Shown here in pieces: positions 27,261 through 63,830 of a stretch of 64,000 nt of DNA. Where the stretch lies: contig KZ538540.1 in assembly GCA_000934665.2 (NCBI GenBank), forward strand, positions 1 to 64,000, in the 5' to 3' direction. A program made the position numbers and the translations under genes. How positions within the stretch are numbered: the first letter of the stretch is position 1; the number at the start of each line of letters is the position of its first letter. The notes beneath the pieces were generated by a model. It did not search any database. It had not been told where the DNA came from and saw only the letters and a list, made by a program, of their open reading frames with translations. This stretch comes from Catajapyx aquilonaris. Its lineage: Eukaryota.

Positions 27261-30200
27261 ATGAAGGAGAAGACAGGATGGAACATCAGGGCCTCCGAGT
27301 TCGCCAAGCACACCTACAATCCCATCAGGGCCATTGTTGACTCCATGGACCTCAACCCCCATCCGGACAAGCCCTTAATTTCACTCTCAATTGGTAAGGA
27401 CACTTTGTAGGTACAACAATGGTGGTCTTCCTTTACTGGGACATCTCGTCACAACTCATGTGACTGTCGGAGGTCGACTTGTGCAAGAATCGTGGTATCA
27501 GTGTGGGGTCAAAAAGTCGCCCAATATGCAGCATATAAGTGAAGGCTGCGCATTTTTAATGATGTAACTTATCCGAAGTGACGAAAGTTGGATTGCAACC
27601 AACATTTGATTAGGATTCATCGGACGACATACTGACACCACTGAGGCTAATCTGGACTTTTGTCGTTCAGAATTTCGATTTTTTAATGAACTCTTTTGAT
27701 CTTATTTTTAACATCCTTTTCGTAGATTGAGATTTTTAACGTATTTGCTTATGTATCAGCAGCCATTTGCCAAACTGCTGCACACTTATGTAATAGGAAA
27801 TTTAATAGCAGCCGGAACACAAAGTTTAAAACCGAAGCGTGAAGGTTGCAGCCTATACACCTGTCGTTTATAATTAGTTTTAGACTTAGAGGTAAACAAG
27901 GTTGAAAAAAGCCTCCAAGCAAAGTGTCATTAACGGGGTTCCGGAAGCAACACTTTCGAACGTAATAAAATAGTTCCGATGAAGACAATCGATCACCCTG
28001 TATGGTCCTTGGGAGGATGTTCCATAAATCGCCTGATTGCTTCCACCATTTGGAATTTAACCGGCTGGTAAATGGCCAAGTCATTTGGCGGTCTCAACTC
28101 TCTCTTTCCAAATTACAAATCGAGGTTATCTCGTGGGGCGTTTCAGGAAGGTCATGGGAAAGACTATGTTTCGTCTGTCCTCTGGAGAAAAAATATATAT
28201 TTACGTGCGACAGAGGCATAAATGATTGGAGGTTGACAGTCTATGAAGAAAGTAAGGTGTCCAATATATTGTGTATCGGTAGTGCGCGATTGTCACCTAT
28301 ACATCAGTTATTTTTAGCAATGTGGGAGGAGGGGGGGGGGGAGAAAATAAGCAGATATTTCCAGGAATTGTTACACAAGGAAGCTTATTTTAGCATCAGT
28401 TCCTAACAATAGGCTCATGTCAAGGCGGGGAAATTGACCTGCCTCAACCATGGCCGTGACAGTGACGGGATTGTCACGATCGTAACAATATCTGGAATTG
28501 TTGACTGTGATATAGCTATTAGTGGCGCAAGTGATTGGAGAATAAATATGTATTGTGCCTCTGGTCCTATAAACAAAAACATATGTCATGTTGTTTCTCA
28601 TAATGCAATGAAGTTTCTCATATTAATATATTAATATATTATATTGTTTTCATACTTCTGGTTGGCCAATACCAATCTCGTGGACTGATAATGAAACAAA
28701 ACATCATACACAAATGAGCCTTAGGTGTAGGCCTACTATACTTTGAGAGTACAGTATTTTGTTTTGACGCGGGGAAGTGGGGATTTTGTAACCTTCAAAA
28801 TATTAGTGTGAAAGCATTGTGTACTATTTTGAAGCGATGGACCTGGAATTTCTAGGTCAGTTTGGTATGGTACGTAGGCTACATGGACTGTACGATAGTG
28901 ACAAATACCTTGGCATGGAATGAGAAGAATTTGAGCGATGAGCGATTTTCCGGCATTCCGCCACATTGGAAGGTTCTGTATTTACTACCTAAAAATATTT
29001 TTGTGGTTGGCTTTTGTTGTCACATTGGCCATCATAGCAACTAGCGACACCCCAAATGACCACTGCGTTCAGTGTTACAAAAACACTGTTACATTCCTCT
29101 GGCCTCTGTCACTGGCAGACCCTAATGTGCCTGCTGTTATCAGCTGGTATTTTCAAAGTAAGGAGGAAAAAATGTGAGAGAAGACCTATAATGAGAGATG
29201 AAAATAATTATTCTGATTGGTCATACAGAAACACGCTGACGGTTTTTCTTGAGCTTTTCCACTATGTTATATTCCCTTTGTTGATGTTGTAATGAGAGGT
29301 CCTTATTAATAGATCTATTAACTTACATATATTTGACTCATAAATGGTTGTTATTGTTGTGAGGAAAAATATATTGCATGTATGCAATCAATAATAATTT
29401 ATCTGCGAGAAACAACTGCGCCGCCTCATCTCTACTTGGTAAAAAAATAGTAAATGCCTGTATCGCAAAAAAACAGAGAAATTGACAGGTTCATTTGAGG
29501 TTATCTGGTAGGGAGGAGGAGTGCGAGGTCATCCTGAGATCGAATTGTGACCTTCTCATAATATTCAGTGTGAAAAGATGTCAGATTTGCTGCATTTTTA
29601 CAGACTTGAATGTGTCGAAAATATACAGGACATTTTGTAACTCTTTCGTCACGCATGATCTGGTTGTTAAAAGATAGTGACGTTTTCATGAATGTGGCAA
29701 TTGGTCTTGACGTGTAACATCCGTACTATGACGCAAGCATTTTAATCAATTGATTAATTTTTTTAGGTGATCCCACGATATTTGGAAATTTGATGCCTGA
29801 TGACACCATAACGGAAGCAGTTATTGAAAGCGTTCAAACCATGAAATTCAATGGATACGCCCCATGTGTTGGTGAGTTAGCTGTTTGTTGCCTCATATGT
29901 CATATAGGGTAATAATACTTTTTTCATTGCAGGATACGAATGTGCTAGAGATGCAGTAGCCAAGTATTACCGCCGCCCTGAAATGCCTGTAGATGCACAA
30001 GTACGTATACTTAAGTCGAATTAGCAAATGCTAATTATACAAAACTTGACCCTTCTGATGTAATTTCAGGATGTGATTTTGTGCAGTGGGTGTTCCCATG
30101 CGTTGGACTTGTGTATTTCTGTCCTGGCCAGTAGAGGTCAGAACATCCTCGTGCCTCGACCTGGATTCCCCTTGTACCGGACCTTAGCCGAGGGTCAAGG

Positions 30201-32055
30201 AATCAAAATAAAATATTACAATTTGCTGGTAAGAATATGGCGAAGTAATTCAATAAGATTTCTTCAGGAATGAAATTTAATTCTCATTAAATTATCATAG
30301 CCTGATCGAGGTTGGGAGGTTGACCTGAAGCACCTTGAGTCTCAGATTGACCCCAGCACGGTGGCCATCGTCGTGAACAATCCTTCCAACCCCTGCGGTT
30401 CTGTCTACGATTCCGCTCATCTCAAACTCATCCTGGACGTGGCAGCTAGGAACTATCTCCCAATAATTGCTGATGAGATATATGACGAGTTTGTTTTCCA
30501 AGGGCACACGTTCCACCCCATAGCTGCATTAAGTACAGAGGTACCCATCTTAGCCTGTGGAGGACTCACCAAAAGGTAACGACAGTCAATGACCTCATTA
30601 GCTTTTAATTACCTTTTTTACATTATGATCATTTGATGTGATATTTTAATTATAGATTTCTGGTACCCGGATGGCGAATGGGGTGGATCATGATCCATGA
30701 TCGTAACGAGTTATTTTCATCTCAAGTGCGTATCTTACAATGAGTGGCGGATTTTGCGAAGGTTATCATAAATCTTACCAGATTTTGCGAAATTGCAGAT
30801 TCGACCCGGATTGCTGGCGCTGTCCCAAAGGATAATCGGGAGTAACACTCTCATTCAGGGAGCGCTGGAAACCATCTTGTCCAAGACACCACAAGAGTTC
30901 TTTGAGGACACTATTGCAGTAGTGCAAGTAAGCCTCAACTTGCACATCCCACTAATATTATATTTATTATGCAATATTTATTATGGCATATTTTGCAGGA
31001 AAATACGGAATTAGCGTATGAAAAATTATCAAAAATTGCAGGCCTTAAACCGATCATGCCTGCAGGAGCCATGTACATGATGGTAAGACCTGTTGTCTTG
31101 AATGTGTGCAGTATTTAGAAATTTAAAAAATAACTTTTTCCCCCCGATTCCTCAGGTTGGAGTCGATATGGAGAAGTTTCCCGAGTTTTCCACCGATCTG
31201 GAATTCGTCGAAGGCATGGTTACGGAGCAATCTGTGTTCTGCCTCCCCGGAAGGGTGAGACAACATTTTCTTCCCTTCTTGGTAACCAATATGGTTCAGG
31301 ATCACTAACAAATTGCGCAATAAGAGAGAAAGTTCGCGACAGGAGTGTCAATGTTATCAGGGAGGAAAACCAAGGGCAAACATTGCCATCAGTCACATGA
31401 ATCCGTTGCCAAGCTGTTTTCCTTCCTAATTTTTTCCACGGATACTCTGACCGGGAAATCAGAACTGCATATCAGAGTTTTATATGCAATGAAATGAAAA
31501 GACTTCCAGTTATATCGTCAAATTATGCATGTGATCGCCTTGTGGTTTTTCCATGAAAATGAGTCAGATTGCTCGCGAAATTGCGATTTTCGTTGCTCCA
31601 TGTAGACGACCCTCAACCTGTTTGTGGGCTGCTCAGGAGAAGCGGTTACCGGTGCAGTAGTCACGCAATTCAGCCAAAGGTCGTGGGAAAAACGCTGTTT
31701 AGTTCTACATTCCCCGATTAATTAATTAGTCGCAGCTCATATAAATTATCCGATTAATTAGTTTCGTATGTTTTCACAGGTGTTTGAGTACCCCGATTAC
31801 GTCCGCTTGGTTCTGACCATCCCTGAGGAGCAAGTGCGCGAAGCATGTGTACGAATGGCTGAGTTCTGTTGCAAGCACTACAGGGCTCCCATACCCAATG
31901 GTAAGCTTATGGTCGGAGCAGGTGCTGGCAACCCATGCTGCTTCTGCGACGAGGTACACGAATCGGTGGGCAATGGACCCGACGGTTCTGTCATATGTTC
32001 CGCATGTCCTGCCATACCGAACAGCGAAGAGCGACATCACCAAACTTCATCCTGA
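27261..32055 (+). CDS. TAT: Tyrosine aminotransferase (class I PLP-dependent)
   Basis: Exons 27261-27393, 29767-29871, 29933-30000, 30070-30228, 30301-30575, 30656-30725, 30799-30927, 30999-31082, 31156-31254, 31780-32055 (alternative spliced end at 32147). Motifs [46 protein letters not shown], the PLP-lysine motif [16 protein letters not shown], and EQSVFCLPG. Confidence 0.96.
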
Positions 32056-33572
32056 TCATCATTTTTTGTGTATAAAAAGAGCGTGTATCTTTTTCTGGTT
32101 GTTATGGTACCTTTTTTTTTTGTTTTCCAGCGACGCACAGTATGTAGCATGCAGGGTACAAAACATATAATTATGTACACTATTTTGCACTTGTGGTTGT
32201 GAGTCTTACAGCAGGGAGGATAACGTTGTGATTGAACGAGATTCATGGATGAGAAGTCATCATAGTTAACTTATGTGGTAGGCTGTAGAAATTTATCAGA
32301 ATGCTTTAAGATAAAATGATTAAGAGAAAGAGTAATGTTTCCAAGCTAAGAGTGTGCGTGCGGTAGTGTATATCGGAAAAGTTTGTAGATTTGTTCACAT
32401 TTGCCTTCATTTTATACCAATGCACATGTGGTGACATCCTAAGGTGGATATACAACCCTTAGCCTATTATGGTACAGTTGAAAGCAGTCTTTCTTGAGAG
32501 GTATAACAATGGCACACTACTGGTCAACTGAACCAAATTCTGGTGGCTGATGCTAGGAATTGGGGTTCTTTTGGGAGTTTTAGTCCAGGCAACTTATACT
32601 GATGCATTCCAGGTCACGGCGGATATGCACTGTTGCGATATATTAACGTACCAAGTGACCAACAGCTATGAAATTTTGCCTCTGAAGCAGGAAGGCCTTC
32701 AAGTATACCTTGACACCAAGATGTCGAGTTCATATTTTTCTTGGTCAAATAAAATACAGCTTGAATTCCAAGAAGCAAGAATTGCAGATAGATATATTAC
32801 CATGACTGTAAATCAAGTCAGAAGTGTACAGAGATATTGTCTGAGTTATATTCGTATTTATTGACCGAATAAACAGTAGCAGTTAGCGAAATTCAGTTGG
32901 GTTTTTTTGTTGTCATCATAATTATCCCAGGGACTCATTCCCATAATCATGCATTCTCGATCTGGATGGAGATTGAACAAGAGACGCTGCAATGCATCTT
33001 CTTTGTACAGTATGGTATGGTATCTTGCCCAAGACCGTAGTTCGTATCCCCCTCCGGCGGACATGTGACACTAGCGATACCATCGTTGAATGTGGTCCAT
33101 TCCCCATCTGCACCTGCACAACAAACAAGCAGCCAATCGGGCTGTCCGCATTGTGTACATTATCAACGTGACTCCTTGGGAGTTTCTGCAATCTCCCAGC
33201 TCTGCAAAATTCCCCGCAGATTGAAGTCCATCTCTAAGTGAGCGTCACCTGACTCAGCCGATGCCTTGCCGATGCTGACAGACTTGGAATTCCTTGGCCA
33301 TCTAGCTGGAGGAGGAGGAGGAGGAGGAGACGACACGAGAGGCGTCGTAATGCACCTTCCCTTATTCCATCTTCCACAACCAAGGACAGCAAGAGGGAAT
33401 AAGGACCCATTGTCTCCCTGCTGATGACTCTCGCAGGTAGGTTGCAGAACACAAGAGTGTGTCACAAATGGGTTCGATGCTTGGATGTGACCTGCCATTC
33501 CCATGCCACCCACTTGTTAGGGATCCAGCCCAGCTGATGCAGCAGTAGAAGGACACTTCCGCTGCAGTCAGA

Positions 33573-36500
33573 ATGAGCCAGGCAACAGCATGGAGCCAGC
33601 TGGGGATGGCTGCCCTCAGCCACCCCAGCTACACAGCCTCAGAGATCATGCAAGGGTCAGTCCTCTCCATTGACGGCAGGGAATTTCCATGTCTGCAGGA
33701 TGTGCGCCAACCCAAGCCATGCCAGAATGCGCCGGCAATGAATAGTTGTCTGGAGGCACCACCATCGTACTTGTCATGCTTGTCATTGCATAGTTCCACT
33801 CATGCAGCTGACAAGTCAATGAGCTTCATAAGTGGATTCTTTAGCAATGGCCAGGCCTCACCCCCTACCGAAAATGAGTCTTCCGCTGGTCGCAACAACA
33901 AGTACTATTTCTCAGCTGGGCTCTCCCTGCTTGACATCAAGCAGGCACTGCAGAAGCCAGGACATATTCACCTGACACATATCATGTAAGCACAACGGTA
34001 ATAGTTAGTCATTTTCACCCATTTTCACAGGCAGAAATACACCTGAATCAGTGTACACTAGGATCTTCACTCTAATATGTGCATGCAGAAATAAATTTTT
34101 CTTAATATAAATTTATTTTGTAGCCAACCTCATGAAACTACTCGAGTGTTACTGACAAAACCAGTTACAGTATTTGACTTCTCATGTTTGTTAAAATGAA
34201 GAGTACCATACCTGCAATACTATCGTTCAACTGATGATGATAATTTCATTGCAGGTCATCCCTCAAGCGTCTCGTCCAGAGCAGCATGCGCACCAATCAC
34301 TACCCATCACCAGCAGACTTGCATGTCATCTACCTTTTTGCCAGTATTCAACGTCCATACCTGAACAAATACAACTTGATTCCTATGCCAAGGTGATTAT
34401 GACACTACACAAAAATGACAGAATATTACATTATTGTAATAACAGAACTTCTTGATATAATCCTTCATTTTGGTTTTCAAGGGCTATAAAAAATATTGCG
34501 TTTCAAAGTTCTGACAGTATTTTTGCTTCCAGGATTATGGAGAAGTTGCAGCGAGGGGAATTGTCACTAGAAGATGTCTCTGTGGGCATGGAAACTGCTG
34601 CCAAATATGCTCAGAACCTTTTGCAAGAACCATCTAGTCAGTTTCCCAACTGGGATGTTATAGTACTGGATGGAGTGGGATGTATTTTTGAGCCATGTGC
34701 TATAGAGGTAGTAAGAGCTAAGGAAAGCTATGAATCAGTGTGATTTACCTTTTTTTCCTTTTTCCTGACAGGTGATTCTTCCTATACTTAAATTAATGGG
34801 GTATAAGGTTCTGGACTCCCAAGCTGTGATTTATTCTCGAGGAGTTAGAGAGCGCCTCAACCGAGAAAGGCTGGAGTTGGTCTGTGCTGAAGTGGCTCTG
34901 GCTACAGGAGAATTGCAGCTGCTCAGGAGTGATTCACATCCTCTCTTAACATTTCTTGACAATGACCTGGACTGTGAGAGTTGCTGCGAGGTAAGTAAAA
35001 TTATCTAAGTCACAAATGGATGGCATGGTGGCATAGTGGTTATGGCCCCAGGCTTCCACCTCATGTCAGAGGATGGATTTTCTCTCGCAAAAGAGGTTTG
35101 GTGGGTTCTCTCCATACTCATGGGAGTTTCCTTGGAGTTTTTTTTGTTTTCCCTAATTCTCAAAATTCATAATCAGCAGAGTAATTAAAGATTAATATAA
35201 AACCTCTTAGGCTATATTACTCATGTTGCTTTTGGTGACTTAGGGTTTTCATTATGTGGATCAGCTACACCTGACAGTTAAATAATCTAACAAACCGAAG
35301 CGGTAGTGGTGGAGTCGTATGGTGTCCGACTGCAAATCGGGAGGTCCTGGGTTCGAATCCCGGAGGCTGGCGACCCTGACCATGGTTTTCTGTGGTTTCC
35401 CATGGTCCTCGCAGGATAATTCCGGGGTCGTTACTGTAATCATAGGCCACAGCCGCTTCCTTCCTTCCCTATCCTTGCCTCATTCCGATGAAAAAGTAGT
35501 AAAAATGGAAAGAGTTCCAGACAAAAAAAAATTGATAGAAATCCACCCCTAGAAAAGCCCGGTTGGCTGATAATGGGGTATCAAATTAATTAGGGTGAAG
35601 TGGGGGAAGTGCACACCCGGGGTAAGTGCACATATTGTGCCGCCATATTGGAATGAAAATGGCTGACGACACCAAAACGCGTCAGCTATGTAGCTGCACT
35701 GTGCAGCTGACAAATAGGATAGGCTATATTTGTAGTAATTTACATAGCTAACAAACTAAAACTGATGTTATTTTCGCTATAAAACTACAGCTGACTGTAA
35801 AAATCTGGCAGAAAATCTGGACTCGGGTGGTGCAATCTACTCTTCTCAAATTACACGCTGATTAGTCACAGTCAAGAAAGATGTGTTGACTGCTAGGTAG
35901 TGGGGCAATATAGAAGGAATTGGTCAAAATGCCTATTTTCAAAGATGATGACAGACATTCTTGAATAAATTCTGAGTACAGACGTGGGGGGGCCTGTGAT
36001 TCTATGACATTCATGAGCATGTTGGATGTCATGGAAGCTGGGGCGGTGGAGGAAGGCTCCAGACCATCATCCATATGCCATTTGGCATGTAATGGTGCAC
36101 AGAGTGTCATGTTTGCACCACCAGAATCAAACATTTTTGCCGGATTTTTAGAGACCTACATGTTGAAGCAGTGCAGACTTCCAAATGGCCTAATTACCAA
36201 AAATTCTGAAATCAAGTACAGTTTCTTTCCCAGGGATTTGAAAGGAACCTTAGGACTAGGTTGTTGAATACAAATTAAGGATTTGTCATATGCCAGATTA
36301 TGTTTTGTGAATACTTGTGCTATAATAAAATAATAAGAATAATTTGTTATCCTGTGCTTGGATTCTGGGCTCTTAGGGGATCCTCTTTATGCTCCTGATT
36401 TTATTCTCTTTCTATGCTGCTGATGGAATTTGGTTGTGGGAGGAAATGGGCGAACCTTGATAAAACCTGGGAGTACCCTGAGAAAACCCATGGGAACATG

Positions 36501-39500
36501 GAGGGAACCCACGGAAACTCTTTCCACATGAGAAATTCATCTGTCCGACATAGGGAAAACTTGGGACCTCCAAGGTGAAGGGTTCTTGCATTAACCACTA
36601 TGCCAATGGGTGGCATTTGGTTTTTCGTGAGGAGTTCCCCCTAACAGGACAGTACTAGTAAATAATTCTTGAAAGATTTAAAATAGTACCATTGAGTAAC
36701 TTTTTGGGTGAGAAATGATGAAGATTGAGCGAGCCCTCCATGAGAGTATATGGAGGTCATGGTCAACAATTATTTTTACAGCTGCTTCTTTCACAATAAA
36801 AACATTTTCTGTTATTGTCCAAGTTTGCAGGCCTATTTCTTACCACTTTTTGTCTTTGGAAGATTGCTAAAAAATATAATATGAGATAAGTGAAAAAAAA
36901 CTATACAGAAACAGTATTACTTTACAAAAGAAAACCCTCCTATCACTTTAAAAGCCACTGTCACATCGTAAATGAAAACCATCAATAGAGGTTTGTCATG
37001 GCCATTTGGAGTGAAATATTGTAGTAAGGTGTACCTTTCATACTGAAAGTTGCCTGAGCTCTATAAAAGGAATAATTGTTGTCAATTGCTTGCTTATTAT
37101 CAGCTACTTGTTGGGAGACACGTAGACTACATGCTAGTACATTACTGTATGACATTTTTACATTTGACGTAACTTGTGAGATTCATGGTACATTGTAATG
37201 CTGTTGTATTATTTTAATATCACTCACCTTTCCAGATATGAGCAAGTAAATATGAATGTTCAGTAATAGTTTATATTCCCATGTGAGTCTCTGTGCCTGA
37301 CAAAACTGTACCACTCTGGTTACCATTTAATCGAATCCGGAAGTTTTTTGCGGTCATTGACCAAAATACCATTAGGAACTTGTCTAGGAATAGCTCCACT
37401 TTCAGCCACTACCAGTGCACTCCATCAAGGTGATGACAAATCTAAGAGGTGCTGTTGTGTATGCTCTTATAGTAAGAATTAATAGGAGCTTACCTATTAG
37501 TAGCACCTTAAGAAAAGAAGCCTAATCAAGAAATGTAAAAATAAAAGAAGGGGAGAGAGAGGGCTTTAGACTTCCTTTTTTTTGCATTTATCTGGCAGAG
37601 AGTCAGATCTAATTTTAGTTCCTACCTTAGGTGTTGGCTTCCCGAACTCAGGCTCCTTCCCTTCCTGCATGTGTGTGTGTAGAGTAGTGAGTTTAGAAAC
37701 TGCTGGGGAAGACTATGGTCTATGGAAAGTGTGTGGAGATGAGTGTGTGGAGTGACAATAAGTTTTTCTTACCTACTCAGTGAAGAGAGTGCTGCTGACC
37801 TTTGGTTTTGTTATAGTTCAAAACTACTGAGGCTGGTGAATCAAGATGTTTAATGTAAGAATGTGCCTCTGTTTAAGAGTGAAAGTGTGCTTAGAGTATT
37901 GCATAGATACAACTGAATCAGATAGTAATATAGTCCGATTTTATATGCACTGCAAACTCGTTTGGCAGGTTATATGAATACTAATTGTGGATAATGATTT
38001 CGTATACGTATTTGCATTACCAAATTTTATAATAATCATATATTTTTCCTTCATTTGTATTCGTACATCTTGCTCTTCCTCGTATTTCTTTTTATTGAGG
38101 ACAAGATTATTTGAATGAACAAACTTGTGTAATATTTTGATTGTCACGCACATTGCAATGTTGAATGATATTAGTTAAATAGAATACCATATAGGTGAGC
38201 AAGTGCCTTTTTTATCTTATTAACATGTGACGTATGGAAAAATTTATCTGGAGAACTATTACATATACGAAGGTCTATTACCTGCCATAATAATAAGGAC
38301 AAGTAATAGTATTAGCAAATGAATAATACCATAGTTTACTGGTTGCAATATATACACTCTTGAAAATTACTCATGTGCCCAAAAAACTGGCTTGCTTCAT
38401 GACTATTTTAAACATTGCACCACCTTGAACAGAGTTGAGGAGTGGAGGCCATTTTGGCTGCAGTAGAGGTATAGGAATGGAGGCCAAAGTGTATGCATGC
38501 ATGGGAACCTCCATAAATAGAGGATTCTGCAAAGGCTTGCTCCAGTTATGTTGACCACAGCATTTGGTTTTCTCAGCCTTCAGATTCAGACCGGTGGCGA
38601 ATGATGCAGGCCAATAGGTCTCCTCAACTACGCCCAGGTCGAAACATGCCTCAGTGGGTCACTGGCCCAGTAAGTCTGTGTGGTGTGATACATATATGCA
38701 TGTATTTGTTTAGAACCATAGTTTACTGGTAGTGGCATTAACAGTTATGAGTTATTTGGGTGTGATTGTAAATTAATTCGTGGAACCTATTAATATCTAC
38801 GAGTAAATGCCGATCTGCAATTCAAAATTACCCCAACTAAGATGAATGATTTCATGGACTATATAACATTTAAGGCAGTAAGTCAGATTCAATGGAAGGT
38901 AGCACCAGCAACAATTGATTGTTAAGTGGGTTGGCATATCCAGATCTGAAATGTGGGTGATAAACCTGATTGTCTGACTAATTAGTCGAGGGATAACGAG
39001 TCTTGTCCATAGAGACTTTGTTAAACAGGCTTTATTATGCAAATACAAGCAATTAATTGTTGAAAATTTTATGCTCATAACATGTGGGATTGGAATAAAA
39101 TTCCAGCTATAATGCTTCATGTAAGTCTTTGTTTTTTAATCACATAGCTGGCTGGAAAGTGCACTCAAAGATAAGTTTATTAATGCTGCTTAGGACTTGC
39201 CATTAAAGCATTAGAATGAAACACTTGATAATATGCTGGTCATGACCTAGTGGTCTGATGCTTTCTCAGAACAACACTCTTGGGTGAAAATCACAGTGGA
39301 ATATGGGCATGGTTCTGGGGGATCATTTGGTAGGTCAAAAAGAAAAATCAGTCAGTGACAAGTACAGTTTCTACAACATGCTTCATGATAATAACATTAC
39401 CTGCATCTGACACTCAATCCGAATCCAATAGCAGAAAGATTAACAGAAACCAACATCTAGCAGATAGGAGAAAAATTATTGTTTTCTCTTGCCTATTGAT

Positions 39501-42500: not shown

Positions 42501-45500
42501 ATTTTTTTTGCCCTTTTTGAAGATTTACTGTTGTTTTGTGGGAAAGAGCTAGTTATGCTTGATAAGTTCTAACTTTACCTGTGTAACTTATGTTTCTACT
42601 AATAATGGCTACATTTTACTACCTTCTTACCATGTAAGTTAGCAAAAAGTTGGTTATTTTCATTCAATTTAGTAGAAGTGTAGCCTGCGAGTCACATGCA
42701 CGATTAGCCAGAGTCACCCAATTACGTCCTCTTCCCGAAATGATCTCTTGGCATCTATTCAGTTAGGTGCTGGCAGTATAATGTATGTTTGCAGTCTTTC
42801 CACGTGTGTGAAACACTTGGCGTCAATGGGTTTAATGTTTAGGTGGACTCATTGAGGAAAAAGTGTTTTCATGGGTTGTTACAAGAGATTAAAATGTTAA
42901 ATGTTGCTTTTTCTGAATGCAAGTTGAACCTTGGAATTAGTAATGTCTTTATGTGTCACAAATTTAACATGTACAAAAATTTGTGCCCATTATCTTTCAG
43001 TGCAATGTACTATTTGTTACAATTAATATTGTTTGGACTTGTGAAACATCATACTCATATTATAGTTGGCCTTACGGGAAGCTGTGAGGAAAAGGACTGT
43101 TTTTAGTGTAGGCATGTAGACACATATTTCCATGGCAGACTCACAGTGTTGGGGAGCAAAGGGATAAAAATAGTGGGCGCCAAAGATGCCTGCTTAGGGG
43201 AGTTCAAAATAGAATTGAGCTTGCCGCCCGAAGGCATATATTTTTTGGGATTTCTTAAAAGAAATTTCCACTGGACAAAACAATCCTATATAAAATAATA
43301 TTCCCTTTCATGTGTAATTTGTAGGTACGGCCTGTGATTCGACCACCCCCAATTCCCAGCACAGAACCTCCAGAATCAGAGTATGAAGAAATTGGGATGC
43401 CAAACCAAAGTTACATTAACACTTCATTTCAAAAGAGGGCAGGTAAGATGGTCCTAACCATATATCATACTTTGAGCCAGCTGTTATCAGTTGCTAAAGT
43501 GTGAACTAATTCAGGTGCTGACAAGGACCTGAAGAGGGGTGATGGGCGTCACTGCGACCTGTGTGGGTGCTCTGCTCCCAAGGTGCGCTGTGAAAAGTGT
43601 AATCAACAGATATTTTGCTTCTCGTGTGATGACATGTACCACAGGCATCCTAAGCGACAGAGTCACTCCAGAAAGGTATGATCCATGGCTTTTAGTCATA
43701 GTAAAACCAGCTTGTAATGAGTGCTGGATTTAGCAGGAACTTGCCTGTCATACAATTTTTGTTTGTATGTGGTTAGCAATTAATTTGTATTGTTATTATC
43801 AGAAACCCTTCCTGTGCAGAAAATCCACACTCGGAAGATTCTTTTTACGACATCATTTATTATCATTGTTAACCTACTTTTTGGTCAAGGTTACATTTAG
43901 TGATATCATCTTTCATGGGAACTATTTGTAAATTCTAGGTGTAAGCCATTTTGATTCTCTGCTGCATGCACAGGAGAATGAAGATACTTTGTAGATGAGT
44001 TTGCTGTGAAAGTTACTCTGCTAAGAATTAAAAGCTAATGTGGAAATTTCCAGGAATGTGAGGAGACAGAGAGGAGTGTTGTTTGATTATTTTATTTTCA
44101 ATAAATCCACTTGGATTGCAAAGTAATATGCAAGTTTAAACTATAACTATTCAGTAGGCTCTGGTATGTGACACTTGAGTAGTCTAGTCCAGTTAAAATT
44201 GCATCACATCAGGGGCCGGTGTAATGGGTGTGCTAAGTTTTCTGTCAAATAGAGCACATACAAGTAAGTGACACTGTCACTAATGTCACCACTTGTGATG
44301 CGAAGTTGTCTGCCAAATGTACTGGAATCATCCTATTACAATAATCATTGACAGGCATGGCATTTTCACATTGTGTTTCAGGTAGGTCTGTTTAGAAAAA
44401 TCTTGTCACCTTAAGACTAGGTAGATGATGAACTGTTAGCTGCCAAATCAATCGAAAAATTTCAAAGAAATGTTACTGCATATAGGCCCTGGACTCAAGG
44501 ACTCCTACACTGCGCCCACCTCTTCCACCAAAGGGTGAGCAACACCAGCCTCCAGTTCCACCTCCAAGGAAACACAAGAGATTTGGATTACGTTCACTGA
44601 CATCTTCACCATTGTTGGGTCGCAGGGACAGTCAGCAGCAACAGCAACATAATGACCAGTCAGAAGTAAGTCTCAGAAAGCCTTTTGGGTGCAGTTTGAA
44701 TTCATTGCCATTTTTAATGTGGGAAATAAGTACGAGAAGGAAGAAGAATAGTCCCTTTCACATTATGCACATGGAACAGTGTTTGGTTTTTTTGTGTTGA
44801 TTTTAACAGTTGCCCAAAAGAGAATTCTCCATCATGGAAAAAGTTGGGAGTTTGAGGAAGTTTATGGGGAGCAGGCCACTGCCTCCTCCTCCTCCTCCCA
44901 AGTCCGAGGGTAAGTTTTTCTTGGGTTTTTAAATGAGTGATTTTATTGGGCTGTCTTTGTAGTTTTGCACCAGTGTTGTAGTAACTTATTATGAAAGTGT
45001 AACTAATTGCTCATTATTTTATACAGGCTGTCTCATTCCAGTTTTTAAAGCATTGACTCTAATAATAATTAATTGACTTGATCTGAGTTTCTAGCATGGA
45101 GTGTCTTTATAGGCTGGTGATAATTCACTAATTCATAGAAGAGGATTCTGAACAACAGAACAGGTAATTTCAGCATGAAGTTGGCCCAAGCTAAGCTTGT
45201 GTAATTTGCTGGAGTTTCCAGCCCTCCTCCCCATACCTGGCCATACTAAGAGGGGTGGAAAACCAAGGAAGCCAATCAAACTTAGCCTTGTCTGACTGTA
45301 ATCTAACTTTAATAACTAATGCTAGTCATTGAAATTAACTTTCTTTGGAAAAGTATTGAATTAAAACTGCTATAATTATTAAACTGTAATTATTATTATA
45401 GCAGTTGAAATGTATAAGTGTGTAGGTGGTAATTGTTTTAAAAACCTGATCTGATACTTGAGCTGGCAGAGACTGCAAATACTGTATATAGTTGCTGCAT

Positions 45501-48500
45501 CCAGTCAAGAGTACTGAAGTAACAGTAATTTTGCACCAGGAGTATGCAAATATGTTAGTTTTAAAAACACCACAAAAGCAGAAATTGAATCAGTATCCTC
45601 TGACTGATCCTTATACGTAAAAGTGAAACTCATATGGATGGCATGGAGGATGTTGAGTTAGCCGCCAGCAGTTCACCGAGGACACAAACAAAAAACTTAA
45701 GTCACCACTAGGTGATGAATGGCATGTTTGTTGGAATGGTTTTAAACTAATACACACTCATTGCATGATGATGTGGTTCTATACGTGTGTTAAAAAGTGG
45801 AATAAACTTATGGCAGGGAACCTTAATTGGGACACCTTATTGCTGATAAAATTTCAATTTGTGAAATACTCTACATATGGATTTAAGTGTAATTATTATT
45901 ACAAAAAAGGAAACTTGGAGTAACCCGATTAAAACAAAGCAACCTATTTTCTTCTGACTGATTACAAATGCCATAGAAAGAGTATGCTACAGTCAATGTC
46001 ACTCTTGCTACAAGAAAAGGTATGCCATTTGAAGTAATAAGCCACATGCAATTTGCTAATTATTATTGCAGCTGTCCATGAGATGTCACACAATCCCACA
46101 TTGGAATTGGAACCAGAAAGCATGCAACAGCATCCTGGTTTTCGGCATGAATTTGGTCCTTCTATGCGACAGACATCGTTCAAAATGGCCCAAAGAATGG
46201 GCCAACCTGACACCATGTGGCCTCAGCAACAGGCACTCAATCATGCACCTTCCCTGCCTCCTAGAACATCAAACATCCCTCCCCACACCAACTCAAGTAT
46301 CCCTCTCTCTGTGATGGAAATGAGTGAACTAGAAGCAAACCAAAGCAGGAGGATACCTGTGAGTGGAAATGGAAGCTGCCTTTCAAACCAAAGTGACCAG
46401 TTGGTAAGTAGACCTAAGGCTGCTTCACAAATTTGGCCGAAAATGAGCAAGGAGGGAATACAGCATTTTTCAAAATTAGTAACATGATGATTAAAACAAA
46501 TAATCATTAGTACCGGTAATATATGTGATTCACATCTGTCCATGTGACATCCAGTAATACTAAATTTCAGTAACTGTTAATCAGTCGCAAGAGGGGTAAA
46601 AGTACTGCAATTAGTGTGTTACCAGTGCATCTACTAATCATATAGTATTGATTCATTGTGAATGCATTGTAATATTTAACCCTCAGACTTTTATTCATAG
46701 GAATACCTCATTATGGTCTATGGCCCATCACTGAGCTATTACAGACAACTGTTAAAATTACAGGAACTGTTAAAAAATTCAAATTCTTTATTCGTGCTTT
46801 ATGGTGAGTTACAATATGTTTATGGAGGTAAATGGCCATGCGATATTTTGTTAGCCATTAAGTGGGTCATGGTCCAAAAGTATAGAAACTGAGAGTCTTA
46901 GCTTCACTCCCTCTTGCTAAACAATTTTGTCAATTGGACCTTTTCCCACCTTATGTAATGTGGATCCAAATCCACTCCTCATGTTGCAATTCATCTGACT
47001 TCTAAACTTATCCAACTCTCCCCTAGAAGCATTATGTAATTTATGGACACTCCGTGAATACGTATCACTAAATTCTAAAATTAGAATGGGTTTTTTGTAG
47101 AAATAATGTCATCTTTGTAAAAAATTTCTGGTCATATAAAATGCTAAAGCTGGCTCCGTTCTTTGTAGATGTGGTGTGATCTTACTTCATAAAGCAGCAT
47201 TGTGAAATTACATTGTGTGTATCTTTACTACAGCCTTCAAGTAGAGACAGTGGCTACCCAGATTGGGAAGCTGAGAGGATGGAGATTCGACGCCATTCTG
47301 CAGCTGGTGAATGGGCTACTACTGGGAGATTGCCCCAAGGGCCACCCAGAACCAATCCTGGACCTCCATTTGCCACCAGGAGAAGGAGAAGTGACATGCC
47401 CAATCCCTTCCAGCAGCAGACAGGACAAAGGAGTCCCTTCTTTGGCAGAGGGATGGTGCAAAGTGCTTCAGTCAGTGACTTGCAAGCAGCTAATATGACT
47501 TTCCATCCTGGAATGCATCAGGTTGGTACCTTATATGATTACTGTATATTTTTTTTGCGTAGAATTTAAGGTGTAAAATATAATGCAATGCTACCATAAT
47601 AGTAGGAAAAAAGTATTTAAAAAGTATACAAGTATTTAAAAAAATTTACATGTCACAAGGCCTTTCAGTGACTAAATCATATTAAAGTTGTGAACTGTTT
47701 AGTGAAATTATGAGTACTCTTTTAACATGTGGGCATCATTAAAAAAAAATTGATGTGTACATTAAGACAGAAGATAGACACATGGTTGGGCTGAGGCTAA
47801 ATAAATGGTACTGCAAGGGAATGTTGCCATGCTGCATTCTTGTGACCAATTTTTAACATGTCGATATTTTTAATCCAGGCCCAGTCCATATCACACCTCA
47901 ACTGTCCAACCTGCCACAACATATGGGTTTCACCTGATTCTTGGAGCAGCCCATGCACCCAGCATGGACCTATGGGATACACCAATGGAACTCTGAAGCG
48001 CACTCCCAGTGTGGGATTTGTGGATGCCCCTTGGCCACCCCACATGTATCCCTACCACCTTCCCCAATTTGGTGTCCCTCCTCCTCCTGCTCCACCACCC
48101 ATCCCCCCACAGGAACGTCCCGGCTCTCCTGCTGTTAGTCACCGATCACACCGCTCTCAAAAGGCAGGGAAGGGCAGAAAGCCCCGCAGGAAGGCACGAA
48201 GGGGTGGTACAGAGTCAGATGAGATGTACTCAGCAGCCAAGACAGAGTCGTCAGATGATGAGGGATCATCCAGAGAGAGGGTACCAACACCGAAGCATGC
48301 ATGGCAGTGCCGTCACTGCACGCTAATCAATGCAGGAGGTACACGGGTGTGTGCTGTGTGTTGTAAGACATACCAAGGAAAAGGTCATAAGGCGAGGAGA
48401 AGCTCAGAAGATGACAGAGAGGAGAAGGAAGAGGAGGCACTGGGCCCCAAGATTAGCTTGCGGCAACCTAAGGCGAATCAATTAGCATCTGATCTGCAGA

Positions 48501-51500
48501 GGAAGTTGCAGATCAAGTCTAGCAATGAGGATGTGTATGGGGTTTCCAGAGCCAGTTTGAATCGAATGAAAGGTAAGTTGGGATGTCATTTTCATATTTA
48601 ATTAACCATGACCCTCAGAAGTAATATTGTGCATACTCAAAAAGAGGAAATTAAAGATAAGGACAATCAAATAAGTACTGATGATTTTTTAATGACCTGA
48701 GGTTGGAGATCCTATGCAGGACAAGTGCTACTGACCTTACCTCATGCTTGACCTTTAACTTGACCCTGAAATATGATATTTTGAAAGTATTTTGGATTTT
48801 ACTGACAGAATTGGAAAGAGGTAAAATAAAAGGCAATACAAAAAAATGAAAAACAAAAAATTGCATTGTCACATGATAATGAAAATATGTGGTGCCGATT
48901 CAGCCATGATGAAAGTACTTGAGTACAAAGCAAATTGTCCTTTTTGTTATACAAAATGACTTTAGTAACTGTTCAGCATACCTTGTGTGCCAGAACTCAG
49001 CTCACATTAGTGTAAGTGGAAATTTCACAGATGCTTACCCATCATGAACTCATATTCCAAGTTGTGTATTCATGCACTCATTGTCATGCCTGATTGTGAA
49101 GTGCCAGGTGCAGGTGAAGAAGCATCTGTGAACTTATTAACCCTATGGATATGACCTCAACTGCGGAACATTTAGTGGTGCTTTCATGTAATGTTTCTTC
49201 TGCAGGGCCTGATACTGTGCAAGATACACAGGCCCAAGTGGAGCCTGGAATGAAAATGGAGTCATCAGTTCAAAGCACCGATGGAAGGGATATGGCCAAT
49301 GAGACTTCCATGCAACAAGACTCTAAACCTGAAAGTGGAGCTGCCAGCTACATATCATTTGGAATGGGAGATGTTGCTGCAGAGTTTAATGCTGTACTGC
49401 AGGAAATGGAGCCAAAGAGAGAGGAAGTGCGTAAAGCTACTCCACCTGCCCAGTTCCAACCTGTGCCTGAGGCAAAGCTTCAGATGCAACAGATGCAGCA
49501 GATGACAGACACATCTCTGTTTCAACAAAGCCCTATGTCACAACCTCCAGTTCAACAAAATCCTGCACCACAGCATCAAATCCAGCCAAGTGTTTCACCA
49601 CAGCCTCAAGTTCAGCTTGAAACATTTCCACTTCAGCAGTCAAAATCTGAACCACAAGCACAAGCACAATCTCAGTTTGTGCAGCAACAAATGCAATTTC
49701 AACAGCCACAGCCTACATTTCATCACCAACAACCTCTTCAGCAGCAACCGTCTCAGCCTCCATTTCAACCCCAGGCACAATTTCAGCAGCAACAGCCTCA
49801 GCCTCCATTTCAGCCTCAGGCACAATTTCAGCAACCTCAGCCACAACTGCAACAGTCACAGCCTGAGCCAATCCCAGACCCCCAGCCTACTTCAACTGGC
49901 TCACGCCAGACTTCACCTCCTAAGCCATCCCCTCGGCGTGTAGTTCAAAAGGTCTCCATGGGAGTTGGTCCCTCACCCCCAAGAGAAGTGGTGACCCATC
50001 CCTTGAAGAGGGAAGCCTCTGTTGGAACAGACAGGCCATGTCTGATGCACTTTGGACAAGAGTCAAAGTCTGGATATGGGAGCGATGATTCAGATGCATC
50101 CCTAGACACTTTCAAGAGCAATAAGGGAAAAGTTATGAGCTCAAGGGGTACTTCACCTCCACCTCAGAATATTTCCACTCAGGTGAATTATAAAGATTAA
50201 TGTTACAGGGAGACATTAATGTTAACATCATTAGAAAGTTTTTAACTCATTAAGTGCTGGTTGTAAGGACAAGTTGAGCAAGCTATAAAGATTGTTTCCT
50301 TTTTCTGTGTACTGTATATTGTATCCATGGCAGCTAAGTCTTAGTTCAACTTTCAATCTGACCATTAAAGATACATTGATGTTGCTGAAGGGTAATTAAT
50401 TCAGTGTAAATTGGTGTAAGTAAATTTTTGCCATCTGTAGTTGTAAAATGAATAACACTGTAATACATGAAAATCTGGATCTTACAGACATATGATGAGC
50501 TGCCCACCCCAAAAAGCCCATCAATGAGATCATCACCAAGGATACATCGATCAGTGTCTCAGCATTCAGTTGGAGTTGAACCTCACAGTATAAATCCATC
50601 TGCCAGCCGCAACCCAGCAATGAATCATCATCATGGACGATACCACTACCACAGAAGGAACTCTCCAAAACTGAAGAGAAGCCGATCTATTCACATCGGA
50701 AACCAAACTGAAGAATGGCTTTTTCCGCACTCCAGGCACATGCATCGTTCAGCTAGCAGGCAGAGCCTAGCCAGTGATACTCAGGTTTGTTTGAATGTCA
50801 ATTTTGCATTATGTGCATATAAAGACGTATATGGACTCACATTAGAAAAGAATGATATTATTTAATACCTTGCTATGATGTGAAGTGATGCTCATTTGTA
50901 GTGTACTAGGTGATTTACCAAAATAGTGGAGTGATATTTTGCAACCAGTATTGCTCCAGACAGGTAACCCATGGAGAAGCCAGATTGTCAAAATAAAAAG
51001 TTGGCATCTATTTTACCATTTTTTATGTAAATGGGAAATTCCTTGAGAAATTAAGTGGACTAGTCAACAGCATGTGGATAAGGCTGGTGATTTGTTCTAG
51101 TCACTTCTACACGTCAAGAGATTTAGTTCACCTTAATGAAAAAGTGAAATAAGTAGGGAGCCAAACCAAATGCTCCTGGAAGCTTGGGTCCGTTGCTACA
51201 GTATGGTTTCCTGCGCGTGCATGTTTGCCGACCGTTCAAAAAAAACCTTTCCAAGAAGCAAGTAAGTACCATATTACCATGCAGATTGTGGCATGCCAGT
51301 ACAAAGCAAGGTTGACCCAAAGGCTTTCACGGAACTGATCCTGGTAGTATACATTCTTGCAGAAGGATCCAGGGGGATCAGGGAGTGATGTAAGTGTTCA
51401 CGTTTATGAAAAATGCATTTTTCTAGGCTTGCTATGCTCCAAGGTGTACGCAATGCCCACTCCTTGTCATTGTGAGTTATTTAGCACAAGCTCATTGCAT

Positions 51501-54500
51501 AATGCTGAAATGTGATCGAAACTGCATGAATGTGTGTCTCACCATTCTTGCCATTAACTACTAAATGGAGCGTGCGAGGGCATGACCAAATGATGTTACC
51601 TTGTCCAGTCTCTTACGAAGTTAAATTGTGAGGTATTTCAGTTCCTTGCATTTTCTTCTTCATGTGGTCATTAATTCATTGCTTACATGCCCATTATATT
51701 GCCATGCAATAAAAAATGCGTACTAAGGGATGTCTTCCTGGTACCTCTGCTTGAGAATAATGAGAATTAATTTTCCCCTCTTATCATGGCTGATTTTCAG
51801 AGTCTGCCAGTATCAGCTGGGTCATCCAGAGAGGGCAGCCCAACCCCCCACTATGGCCCATCCCACCGTTACCAAAATGATGATTGCTACACTGACCACA
51901 GATATGAAGTATTTGACTCGTCCTCAAGGGGAAAGCAGCAACAGGAAGGCATAATAATGACTGGCAGGGGGTATGGGGATAGCTTGAGGGACTTGAGGGA
52001 CAACAGAGGAGGGGGATACTTTGACCACAGGAAAAATTCCCTTGACTGGAGTAAACGGGGAGGATACTCAAGAGTAAGATCTCTCTTGTGCCAAATAGTG
52101 TACTGATTAACCCACCCACTCAGGAATATGTGTATTTCCCTCTTCCACATGATTAATTTGTAATCTGATATTCCAGCATGGCTTACCTTTCCATTTTATC
52201 CATGTGTGTAATGTGAAAGGGTTGTTTAAATGGCAATGTAAATAATGGCGTGTGTGAATTGGTTGTTTTCAGTGGTAATGTGAATCCTAGTGTATGTGAT
52301 TCTGTGAAAGAGGATATGAATGTGACTGTTGGGAATATTAAATGTACTATTTTTTTCGTTTCTTGCATCAGATTGAAAATGGAGATGCACCTCATCACCG
52401 CAGTCACAGTCGAGTGGATTACCAGGCACCAGAATCTGTCCTGAGGGACCTGGACAATATGACTAATTTAGAAGAGGTGATCCAGAAAAGGAGGCAGCAA
52501 CAGGAAACCATGAAACTACAAGGAATGGAGCTTGTCAAGCTACTAAGAGTGAGTGTGTTGTAACATATCACATGTTTTGTTCTGCTGCTGTATATTTTCA
52601 CATGTTTTTAATGGTAAGGTAGTGACGTGTGCCAATAACTTGAACACTACTGGTACTTGGAATGATGAGGGTTATTAATCATCTACCCAAGTGGTACCTG
52701 CAGAAGAAAGTTGCATAGAGACAGGTGTACAAATAGTGAAACCTGCAGAGGAGAATTNTTACAAACCAGCTCGTTGGCGCGCGCACGTTGCCAGATGATG
52801 AATTCAATGTCGTGAGGGTTGCGGGCTATTCAGGATCACGTTAATAAGATCCTTTGTAGCACATCATCACATACAACAACAACAACAACATCACGACATT
52901 TCCCTATGAGGGGTAGTCATCATCACATAATTATCTGAATTGAAGTTATAAGTCCATACACCTTTCAGACTGAATTTGTCAAGCCTGTCACCAACTTTTT
53001 GCTCATGAGGGTGATGTTTCTTGCCCACAATCCATTCATGCCCATTTTTTTCCATGTTATGATTTGCTGAGGCTATGAGATGGCCTCTAATGCAGTAATT
53101 ATTCCGCTACATACAATGTTTCCTTACAAGGGGACCTAAAAATGCTATGTTTCTGCATTATATATGCTTTGCTATAGCTGACAAAAAAATTAATTAATAA
53201 TTTTTTCTTGTTTCTGACACTGCAAAACAAGGTTCATTCATATTCATGCAGGTTTCACTGTAGGAGAATTGCTCTCATCTGCCATGTTATGATGCGTAAA
53301 TGATCTTTCTTTCCAGTTAGATACTTTAATATTTGCACATGTATCACTTACTTAGGAAGCAGAACAGCACAACTTCACAGCAGATGACCTTCAGATTGCC
53401 TTGAATCACTGTGAAGAAAAGAACCCACTAACTTGGCTCCAAGAGAACCTCCGTAACATGGTGGATACAGTAGTCATTTTAGCAACAAACTATGGACATG
53501 AGAGAAAGGAGAATGATATTGGAACTATCTCTGTCACTGAGGCAAGAGATGCACTCAGATCACACAAAGGAAATGTGTGGTCTGCTGTCACTGAGTGTGT
53601 GGAACAGAGGCAAAAGAAAGTGAGTTTATTTGAAATGTGTGATTTTTAAAATAGACTGGACAAATTTAGGAGCAGTTGGACCAAAGCAAATTTCTGAATA
53701 TTTCTGATTATGCACAAGTATTCGCCATACAAAATCCAAGAAAACCCCAAGATTTCCTGCATATTTTGTGTCCATACAACTGCACTTTACTCCTGTTTCA
53801 AGAAAAAAAAAAAGCCCTACCAGCAAAACCAGTAAGGACGAAAGCCACTTGCAGGTCTTGTGCATGACCTTTCTCCTCACCTGTTCTGCAGAGAGGGCTT
53901 TTTTCTTATTCTCTTATGGCAGGTACTTCTGGAATGTGCTAGTGCTAATGGAGTGGCAATTCTATCTGTGACAGTATGTGGAGCTGTCTGCAAGGGGAAA
54001 TTTTACTCGAGAGGATGTAGTGACAGCTCTGACAGTGAACCATGGCAATGTTGAGGCTGCCTACCTGGAACTGAGCAAGTCACAGCTAAAGCCCTTTCTG
54101 ATGAGGATTTGGGGGCCACCTGCTGGCCAAGAGAATGAGAGTGGAAATGCTGCTGCTGAAACAAAGGCATCCGTAAGAGCCCCCACGGCACAGGAGGAGA
54201 AAGTTGGGGAAGAAGGTATTATTATTTTATTTTTTTTTCATTTCATGTTATCCAAAATCATTACATGTGGTGGTATGAATAATGAGTAGCTGTGATCCAT
54301 AATGATGTCTCATGGCATGGTGTAATTTGTGGGAGGAGGCCAACAGTGATAACACTCATACCTTTTTAACAAATCAGTAGGCCTCCTCAAACATTACACT
54401 GTGGGCTTGGCAAGCATGTAAAACTATTCAAATCATTGCTTCCTCGTTAATCTTAATGAGGCCTTTTTTGCCTCATGGCTGGGTTGTGTTGCACTGCCTA

Positions 54501-60499: not shown

Positions 60500-61375
60500 A
60501 AAAACTGACAGCGAGTTCAAATATGGCTCCCGGCCAGCGACAGAGTTACCAGCTGTTACCCGTGGTGTTACCAGATCGGCCGCGGTGTCAATATGTTTAC
60601 TTCTAAAAATTAGTAACTAATCCTTCACCCGGTTCCTCTCCCTTGCGTTGATGCCATCTTTATCTTTCCCCTTCTTTCCTTCTCAGTTTTCGCCGCCCCC
60701 AGCTCCCCTGGCGTCCTTCCCTTGAACCAGGTGCCCAACTTTCGCTCTTTCAGTACACCCGACGTCGCGGCGCTCAGTCCCACCGTCTTTCTACACAGGG
60801 CAGCAAACTCTCCCATTCGATCCCCTTCCCTCCCCCCTCTGGAGTAGGACGACTTTCCCCCTCCCTCCACCTCTTCCTACCCTCCCTTCACCCCCCTCCT
60901 CCTCCCCCCTCTCCTTCCTACCCTCCCTTCACCCTCCCCCTATTTCCCCAGTTTTCGCTCGTCTCTCGCTCTCTTCTCGCTCCCCCGTATGTGACATGGC
61001 GTCCTATGTGTTCTGAACCCCATCCCCCCCTCCCCTCCTCTCCTTCTGCCCTCACCTCCTCTCTCTCACTCTCCGCCACCACTACCCCATCATCTCCCGC
61101 CCTACATTCTATATTTCGACCCCTCTCCACCCCCTGTCCCGTCCACCCCCTCCGTCAGACAACCCCAGTGCTCCTCGGCCCCTTCTTCCCGCACCGCCCC
61201 CGAATACCACCTTCGCCCCTGGATCCATGAGCCGATCAGGGGGATAGAGAGAGAGAAAGAGAGGGAGGGAGAGAGAGAGAGAGTCAAAAGGGGGGCATAC
61301 GCGAAACCAGAGGGAATTGACTCCAGGGGGTTGGTTTCACGGCCGAAAACTTGACCCTAAGACAGGCCTGCATTG
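60500..61375 (+). promoter_or_regulatory. CpG-rich promoter and long pyrimidine-rich 5' leader of WAC
   Basis: CpG reappears here; GCCATCTT YY1-like motif near 60653; C/T-rich tract followed by a (GA)n tract before ATG 61376. Confidence 0.55.
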
Positions 61376-63580: not shown

Positions 63581-63830
63581 TTATTTATTTATTGATACCC
63601 CATTGGGAGAATCGGCGCTCCATTAGAGGGGTGGAGTACCACCATTGGATGGGGCCAAGGATAGGGAGGGAAGGAAGCGGCTGTGGCCTATTATATGGAA
63701 GCAACCCTGGAATTATCCTGGGGGGACCGTGGAAAACCACAGAAAACCACAGTCAGGGTTGCCGGCCCGGGGAGTCGAACCCAGGACCTCCCAATTAGCA
63801 GTTGGGCTCCATAACCACCACACCAACTTG
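63550..63830 (-). mobile_element. tRNA-derived SINE with (TAAA)n tail
   Basis: Reverse complement of the 35298 SINE body and head; the (TTTA)n run at 63550-63590 is the tail. Confidence 0.75.

Follow-up and report, generated by a model that had tools for sequence, protein, structure and literature searches.

Results

The LUBEL gene of the window

The first 64,000 nucleotides of contig KZ538540.1 of Catajapyx aquilonaris (GenBank assembly GCA_000934665.2; forward strand), which we call the window, carry a gene that, judged by homology, is the arthropod orthologue of LUBEL/HOIP (RNF31), a putative linear-ubiquitin E3 ligase. An earlier note on this DNA had proposed that the one locus encodes both a HOIP-type ligase with a PUB domain (PUB+) and an insect-LUBEL-type ligase without it (PUB-less), the latter from an internal first exon in the intron behind the PUB-bearing exons. 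We find diverged PUB-like exons that can be joined in frame to an insect-type N-terminal exon, and the idea of two isoforms appears more plausible than at first look.

Identification of the gene rests on several of its parts. The exon encoding the B-box-type zinc finger (43515-43675, plus strand), located by protein search and by tblastn, returned 25 proteins from insects, arachnids, one centipede and one barnacle, those with a name being mostly annotated as LUBEL or LUBEL-like, and its top identity to the collected proteins was 82-84%. Among the collected LUBELs, the best overall identities to the window gene were ~67% for Schistocerca, 62% for Daphnia and 58% for Penaeus; the collections yielded no protein of the same species or of a near relative, and by identity alone the gene would be assigned to an arthropod, probably a pancrustacean. 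Further exons were placed on the plus strand by tblastn with insect LUBEL proteins, within outer match limits of 47231-58472. They include an NZF-like match (~48245-48370), a HOIP-type UBA pair (53341-54199; 70-80% identical to insect LUBEL) and the RING1-IBR-RING2-LDD part (56146-58472; 59-65% identity across ~400-450 aa). Overall, identity to insect LUBEL proteins in the UBA and RBR parts is ~60-77%. The Pfam domains IBR, IBR_1, E3_UbLigase_RBR and UBA_HOIP were read on the matched termite protein P0012; UBA_HOIP in insect LUBEL has an E value of 1.8e-57. Runs of low complexity, Gln/Pro-rich and Glu-rich, lie within the LUBEL coding exons at 49118-50200 and 57960-58100. Large inserts of this kind are typical of arthropod LUBEL relative to HOIP.

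The conserved N-terminus of LUBEL is encoded by the plus-strand exon 38577-38669 (RWR..R.MPQWV), which is orthologous to insect LUBEL coding exon 2. It comprises 93 nt, or 31 codons, with phase 0 at both ends, and is bounded by the acceptor ttggttttctcag| and a gtaagt donor; the PPPIP..EYEEI exon (43325-43442, plus strand) comes after it. Insect LUBEL models start M-x(5-12)-W-R-P-M-A-I-S-N-P-S-T-R-L-R-x-A-R-x-M-P-Q-W-V, followed by PPP and D-Y-E-V-I, and all 15 aligned sequences (14 insect LUBEL N-termini and the window exon) agree at the residues W, R, R, M, P and W. The likeness to insect LUBEL N-termini, to which the earlier note had pointed, is thereby borne out, including the PPP and YE.I that follow. 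For this conserved motif of 25 residues, the excerpts of the LUBEL literature consulted describe no function.

PUB-like exons upstream of the motif exon

Four exons on the plus strand precede the motif exon. Coding in the PUB+ form would begin with the exon at 33573-33985 (ATG at 33573; donor CAT|gtaagc, phase 2). It is followed by PUB-like exon 2 at 34255-34392 (acceptor ttcattgcag|, donor AAG|gtgatt), exon 3 at 34533-34707, and exon 4 at 34772-34990, which holds the C-terminal part of the PUB-like region and ends GAG|gtaagt in phase 0. Splice signals of the four are ordinary, and when they are spliced onto 38577-38669 the frame stays open, with 0 stops. A possible 84-nt intron was noticed by eye in the 5' leader of this form, from CAG|gtaggt at 33436/33437 to a ttgttag| ending at 33520. 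Such an intron (33437-33520) would mean a non-coding exon upstream of 33573, and that exon could in principle splice to 37817, the left edge of the candidate mini-exon described below.

The likeness to the PUB domain of human HOIP/RNF31 (PDB 4OYJ, 4OYK, 4P09, 4JUY, 5LJN, 8Z30), which likewise lies N-terminal, ahead of the zinc fingers, is very weak when compared directly. Exon 4 gave seven matches in PDB at E <= 10, the top six being human RNF31 PUB chains with a best E of 0.56 for this one exon; query residues 5-64 aligned on chain residues 120-178 of 186, which is the C-terminal third of the domain. Exon 3 has KYAQNLL..W, comparable to KYGRNLL..W in helix A of the human PUB domain, where Tyr82 and Asn85 are found. 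A stronger link runs through the LUBEL-like protein T1J4W9 of the centipede Strigamia maritima (P0022), whose residues 65-158 match the RNF31 PUB domain with an E value of 0.001 and whose PUB-like region and zinc finger fall within one protein model. Aligned with the first 200 residues of this protein, exons 2-4 reached a local score of 66 over its residues 38-163, compared with 28.5 +/- 4.2 for shuffled sequences, none of 1000 of which scored as high. By eye, the end of the 33573-33985 exon also resembles residues 25-36 of the centipede protein.

Several searches were negative. The Pfam PUB family (PF09409) matched neither the four exons, scanned singly, nor P0022 at E <= 10, a negative that the shortness of the exons makes weak. 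RNF31 was not matched when exons 2 and 3 were compared singly with PDB, exon 2 having no match there at all, exon 4 had no match at E <= 0.001 among 1.84 billion representative proteins, and in a BLASTP comparison of the spliced N-terminal model with 97 LUBEL-like proteins the PUB part was unmatched at E <= 10. From the alignments as a whole, the PUB likeness of the upstream exons appears to be real but very diverged, being weak directly and stronger by transitivity through P0022. The description of these exons as PUB-bearing in the earlier note is thus supported by the PDB matches of exon 4 and by the centipede alignment.

In the transitive alignment, the places of human Tyr82, Asn85 and Tyr124 are kept in the window (KY..N-LL of helix A, and ..GY), as is a Trp. 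The place of human Asn102 is Asp or Gly in the window, according to the transitive and partly by-eye alignment through P0022, and those of Lys99 and Tyr94 are also changed. Asn102 has been reported as the cornerstone for binding of the PUB-interacting motif (PIM), and the N102D exchange as abolishing it (Elliott et al. 2014, PMC4017264). Canonical PIM binding by the PUB-like domain of the window seems doubtful, and because the Asn102 place is not Asn, deubiquitinase recruitment of the mammalian kind should not be assumed. The same caution applies to the earlier suggestion that alternative 5' ends would act as a switch for deubiquitinase recruitment, since in this alignment neither the window nor the centipede has Asn at that place.

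The splice 34990>38577 is favoured because the donor of exon 4 fits the consensus and has the phase that 38577 needs, and because the spliced model is without stops; this junction is probably used, giving a PUB+ product. The PUB-like exons might instead form a separate upstream transcript that ends soon past 34990, with LUBEL starting within 35000-38570, which would make an internal first exon obligatory. Read-through of exon 4 does reach a stop after five codons (..CCEVSKII, stop), there is an ATTAAA at 35184, and 79 long arthropod LUBEL models all lack an extended stretch ahead of the zinc finger. However, such a transcript would leave a consensus donor in the right phase at the end of exon 4, and both human HOIP and the centipede model unite PUB and zinc finger in one protein. 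We regard a separate transcript as very improbable.

A candidate mini-exon in the intron

The proposed internal start consists of ATG TTT AAT at 37846-37854, with atcaag ahead of it and the donor GTAAGA behind it at 37855-37860 (GT at 37855-37856). These letters, the acceptor at 38577, which lies 722 nt downstream, and the phase-0 join between the two are all present as the earlier note described them, and the 37854>38577 join keeps the frame just as 34990>38577 does. For the left border at 37680 that had been given to the exon, there is no sequence basis, and ATGs at 37715, 37722 and 37739 would precede the proposed start. We have drawn the candidate as 37817-37854 on the plus strand, from an acceptor-like ttttgttatag| with its AG at 37815-37816, which would give an internal exon of 38 nt; a branch-like CTGAC (37795-37799) and a pyrimidine run lie ahead of that AG. 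The donor equals the gene's own donors in quality, and with MFN in front the Trp of the window becomes residue 10, as in Cryptotermes. A repeat check found no second copy of the candidate region in the window. The barnacle model P0025, which begins MFN and continues QQWRD.., was considered as support and set aside, being without R-x-MP-x-W and having its Trp just five residues from the Met.

Acceptor-like and donor sites that flank 38 nt, a length that is not a multiple of three, could also mark a cassette exon of the PUB+ transcript, whose inclusion would shift the frame to a TGA in exon 38577 and leave a PUB-only stub or a target for decay. The signals in question were read by eye only, and we give this reading hardly any weight.

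How readily such a stub arises by chance depends on what is counted. The intron 34991-38576 holds 110 open combinations of an ATG with a phase-0 GT, compared with 71.6 +/- 15.6 in 500 shuffles, and six combinations with a GTRAG donor, compared with 2.45 +/- 2.1. Stubs of the form 'Met plus 0-3 codons | GTRAG' occur 34 times on both strands of the whole window (128 kb), so that 0.95 would be expected in this intron and the probability of at least one is 0.61. Requiring N, S, H or Q as the last residue leaves seven in 128 kb, with 0.17 expected in the intron (P 0.16). Still narrower templates give smaller values, but the narrow ones were framed after the candidate and the insect data had been seen. 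The rarity of the stub depends on the template, with P from 0.03 to 0.6, and the stub itself is weak evidence; a fair likelihood ratio for a real exon is perhaps 3 to 10 in favour.

A core promoter scan of 37300-37846 found two hexamers resembling an initiator (Inr), neither of them with a downstream promoter element (DPE) or a TATA box at the right spacing. One of these, TCAGTG, lies at 37777-37782, and relaxed Inr matches occur at 2.5 per kb per strand. For the proposal that the locus has two isoforms, the outcome is accordingly divided, as the gene build and the PUB-like exons speak for it and the lack of a core promoter motif in 37300-37846 speaks against it.

We favour, at a little under even chances, the reading in which the stub arose by chance and the PUB+ form is the sole product. 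Unlike the fly and shrimp genes in print, this LUBEL/HOIP gene retains, on its four upstream exons, a PUB domain of the HOIP kind, though a diverged one, and its main product would most likely arise from the splice 34990>38577, with PUB ahead of the conserved LUBEL N-terminal motif. The acceptor at 38577 lies at a conserved phase-0 intron position, and its exon is the orthologue of insect coding exon 2. On this view, ATG TTT AAT | GTAAGA at 37846-37860 would be a chance pattern, or at most a site in rare use, whose build merely coincides with that of an insect first exon. The gene would make only, or almost only, the PUB+ form. Chance is favoured as the origin of the stub because the stub is short and not unique, because Inr with DPE, or TATA, was not found in 37300-37846, and because the commonest insect prefix is MN. 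What the DNA shows is the letters, the frames, the exon homology, the PUB likeness and the conserved place of the intron; which junctions are used we infer.

Insect gene build and the case for a second 5' end

Several observations weigh against this favoured reading, the first of them on the build of the gene in insects. Metagenome contigs scanned with an alignment of insect N-termini yielded nine genomic loci, L001-L006 being termite-like and L007-L009 hymenopteran-like. In all nine, the motif exon starts at a YAG acceptor exactly 18 nt, or six codons, before the Trp codon, just as in the window (ttttctcag|CCT..TGG), and it ends at a gtaagt donor right behind ..MP-H-W-V(M), at the same border as in the window. 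Eight of the nine have an in-frame stop upstream of the acceptor with no ATG after the stop, so that a different exon has to supply the Met with which the insect protein begins; L001 has an in-frame ATG 28 codons ahead of the Trp, where its relative L002 has a stop. Of 28 distinct insect N-termini, 24 start 0-3 residues ahead of the junction, whose place was seen in the two contig groups and assumed for the remaining N-termini. The residues before the junction are MN in nine cases, M in five, MS in three, none in two and MLQ in two, with MMN, MQN, MMH, MNS, MSND, MQQQNP and MQNPGGPLN in one case each; 12 of the 28 prefixes end in Asn. In L007 and L008, an ATG AAC|gtgagt stands 2.7 kb upstream of the motif exon. 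A tiny first coding exon of 1-3 codons, often ending in Asn, thus appears from these alignments to be the rule in insect LUBEL, and since insect genes use it at the same acceptor, an MFN-type exon is what one would look for in the window. The build proposed in the earlier note, a tiny first coding exon and then a phase-0 intron whose acceptor lies six codons ahead of the Trp, is indeed that of the insect genes.

The letters around the candidate add to these objections. The base at -3 of the ATG is A, the preceding 106 nt are free of ATG, and the pattern 'M-(x)-N | GTRAG' has a single instance in 128 kb, which is the candidate, and was seen in 1.3% of 2000 shuffles. Other arthropods contribute as well. 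Shrimp RefSeq models of LUBEL show alternative N-termini, and among 79 long LUBEL-like proteins from chelicerates, crustaceans and insects, found with the termite N-terminus, the zinc-finger motif never lies beyond residue 146 (four are without the exact motif), which leaves no room for a PUB domain ahead of it. Repeated loss of PUB is easier to explain if PUB-less transcripts pre-existed, and with PUB-less models in many arthropod lineages, such transcripts may be old, which makes a second 5' end more likely from the outset in a species that keeps the PUB-like exons.

The main rival reading takes the MFN stub as a real coding exon, orthologous to the insect first coding exon, at a locus that makes both PUB+ and PUB-less ligases. 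The stub could be reached by an internal promoter, or a non-coding exon further upstream could splice into it at 37816, where the sequence resembles an acceptor. The conserved acceptor place, with the Met supplied by another exon in eight of nine contigs, the short and often Asn-ended insect prefixes, the Trp at residue 10, the single M-(x)-N occurrence, and the good donor with A at -3, ATG-free leader, branch-like site, pyrimidine run and AG would all fit such an exon. It would, however, have only nine coding bases, recognized by a post hoc template whose broader versions have P 0.16 to 0.6, and its extra Phe codon has no counterpart in the prefix most often seen in insects (MN, nine of 28; M-x-N, two of 28). 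A core promoter motif was not found in the interval scanned, and the termite-like contigs have no conserved first-exon candidate within 5 kb upstream of the motif exon. The ATGAAC|GTAAAA of L003 was tried as a first exon and rejected, because it is absent from L001, L005 and L006; that its relatives do not share this MN|GT site means that such sites do arise by chance. Within at most 5 kb upstream of the insect motif exon, a search of L001-L009 for PUB-like open reading frames returned noise only, with a best E of 1.4. On this balance, use of the MFN stub as a coding exon is possible, though we would put it clearly below an even chance.

A PUB-less form could also come from another non-coding exon, in or before the intron, with translation starting at the two Met codons at 38601-38606, which occupy the place of the Met after W-R-P. 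That Met is invariant in nine of nine close insect sequences, six of the 97 collected LUBEL models begin at it (M-x-ISNPST..), and the intron offers five other ATG..|GTRAG options. The resulting protein would, however, be without the invariant W-R, and the models with this internal start may reflect incomplete annotation. We consider this route improbable. Whether by the stub or by some other path, the making of some PUB-less isoform seems to us evenly poised.

Neighbouring features of the window

Upstream of the LUBEL gene lies a tyrosine aminotransferase gene of several exons (29754-31906, plus strand), one of which, 30301-30579, encodes a sequence 73-75% identical to the crustacean and collembolan enzymes. 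The intron 34991-38576 contains one copy each of two inverted repeat pairs. The first, of 173 bp, is 83% identical between 35318-35490 and 63643-63813, and its intronic copy is 2.4 kb upstream of the candidate; translations reading ..GFEPRTS.. and ..GVEPRTSQ.. suggest a tRNA-derived short interspersed nuclear element (SINE). The second and weaker pair, 36470-36608 and 3739-3880, is 70% identical over 145 bp. Downstream of the 3' end of LUBEL, a GC-rich stretch (0.50) at 60600-61350 has long Pro/Ser-rich open frames on both strands. The window also carries 23 N letters, that is, small assembly gaps (the first at 288, then 6987-6992, then from 10621), and one X stands in the translated frame at ~52.7 kb, in a region of LUBEL intron or exon border.

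Discussion

The gene studied here combines features that have been met separately in better-known systems. Like LUBEL of Drosophila (CG11321), it would encode a linear-ubiquitin ligase of the RBR-LDD type with a B-box zinc finger, an NZF and a UBA pair. The fly protein is reported to be without a PUB domain (Asaoka et al. 2016, PMC5090701; review PMC5413910), whereas the window has PUB-like exons in frame; no dipteran was among our matches, and the comparison of N-termini covered other insects than the fly. With the LUBEL proteins of Cryptotermes, Periplaneta, Schistocerca, Anabrus, Tribolium and others, and with the contigs L001-L009, the window shares W-R..R-x-M-P-x-W-V, PPP, YE.I and the zinc finger. 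Both borders of the motif exon agree as well, with a phase-0 acceptor that precedes the Trp by six codons and a donor right behind ..MPxWV. The difference lies in what stands in front, since in insects the motif exon comes after a very short first coding exon (such as MN, MMN or MS), whereas in the window it comes after the PUB-like exons, the mini-exon being a candidate. The resemblance to human HOIP is that of domain order, and it is offset by the weakness of the likeness and by the differences at the places of Asn102, Lys99 and Tyr94.

A further parallel is the centipede. Among the arthropod LUBEL-like models that our searches returned, its protein alone has a PUB-like region ahead of the zinc finger, but it has no clear W-R..MPxW motif, is a partial model of 935 aa, and has Gly at the Asn102 place. 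In the stretch between PUB and zinc finger of the centipede model (residues ~255-300), ..IWKRIYSS.. and ..LYENLNV.. resemble, by eye, W-R-P-M and D-Y-E-V-I, a hint that the order of PUB, motif and zinc finger may be old.

LUBEL of the shrimp Penaeus has been reported to be PUB-less (PMC12154395). It resembles the present case as a crustacean LUBEL with several annotated N-termini, so that alternative 5' ends do occur in the gene family. Thirteen isoform models of Penaeus chinensis (P0096 and 12 of the 14 listed members of its cluster) include 11 that begin MVGTKD.., one that begins MFRRG.. and one that begins MWYPC..; the shrimp models, P0229 (X8) and P0231 (X16) among them, thus have at least three different N-termini. 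The shrimp differs from the window in its degenerate W-R motif, and every isoform listed is without an extended stretch ahead of the zinc finger. The main Penaeus N-terminus carries a degenerate ..SPLSRLRL.. that resembles the ..NPSTRLRL.. of insects.

In the literature searched, we found neither a LUBEL described as having a PUB-like domain together with the insect-type N-terminal motif, nor any account of the conserved intron six codons before the Trp. The same papers also do not describe the placement of the initiator Met of insect LUBEL on an exon of 1-3 codons, which can probably be read from public insect annotations. Among the papers listed for LUBEL alternative promoters, titles and opening lines of abstracts say nothing on LUBEL 5' ends, and among those listed for HOIP and PUB in invertebrates they mention no arthropod PUB+ LUBEL. 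Alternative first exons as such are ordinary, and the gene family is a known one.

Mammalian HOIP docks OTULIN and SPATA2-CYLD, deubiquitinases that restrain linear ubiquitin signalling, through its PUB domain. The presence of PUB-like exons ahead of an insect-type N-terminal exon indicates that the insect N-terminal motif and its intron predate the loss of PUB. In its fullest form, the proposal holds that two ligases come from one locus, a PUB+ one like HOIP and a PUB-less one like insect LUBEL, with the mini-exon as orthologue of the insect first exon. Catajapyx would then preserve a living intermediate, and insects, perhaps with other arthropods, would have lost PUB by retaining just the internal 5' end where there had been two. 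We judge this rather unlikely on present evidence. If the mini-exon is used, one gene could choose between a form with and a form without the docking module, and this would offer a simple route to the repeated losses of PUB across the arthropods.

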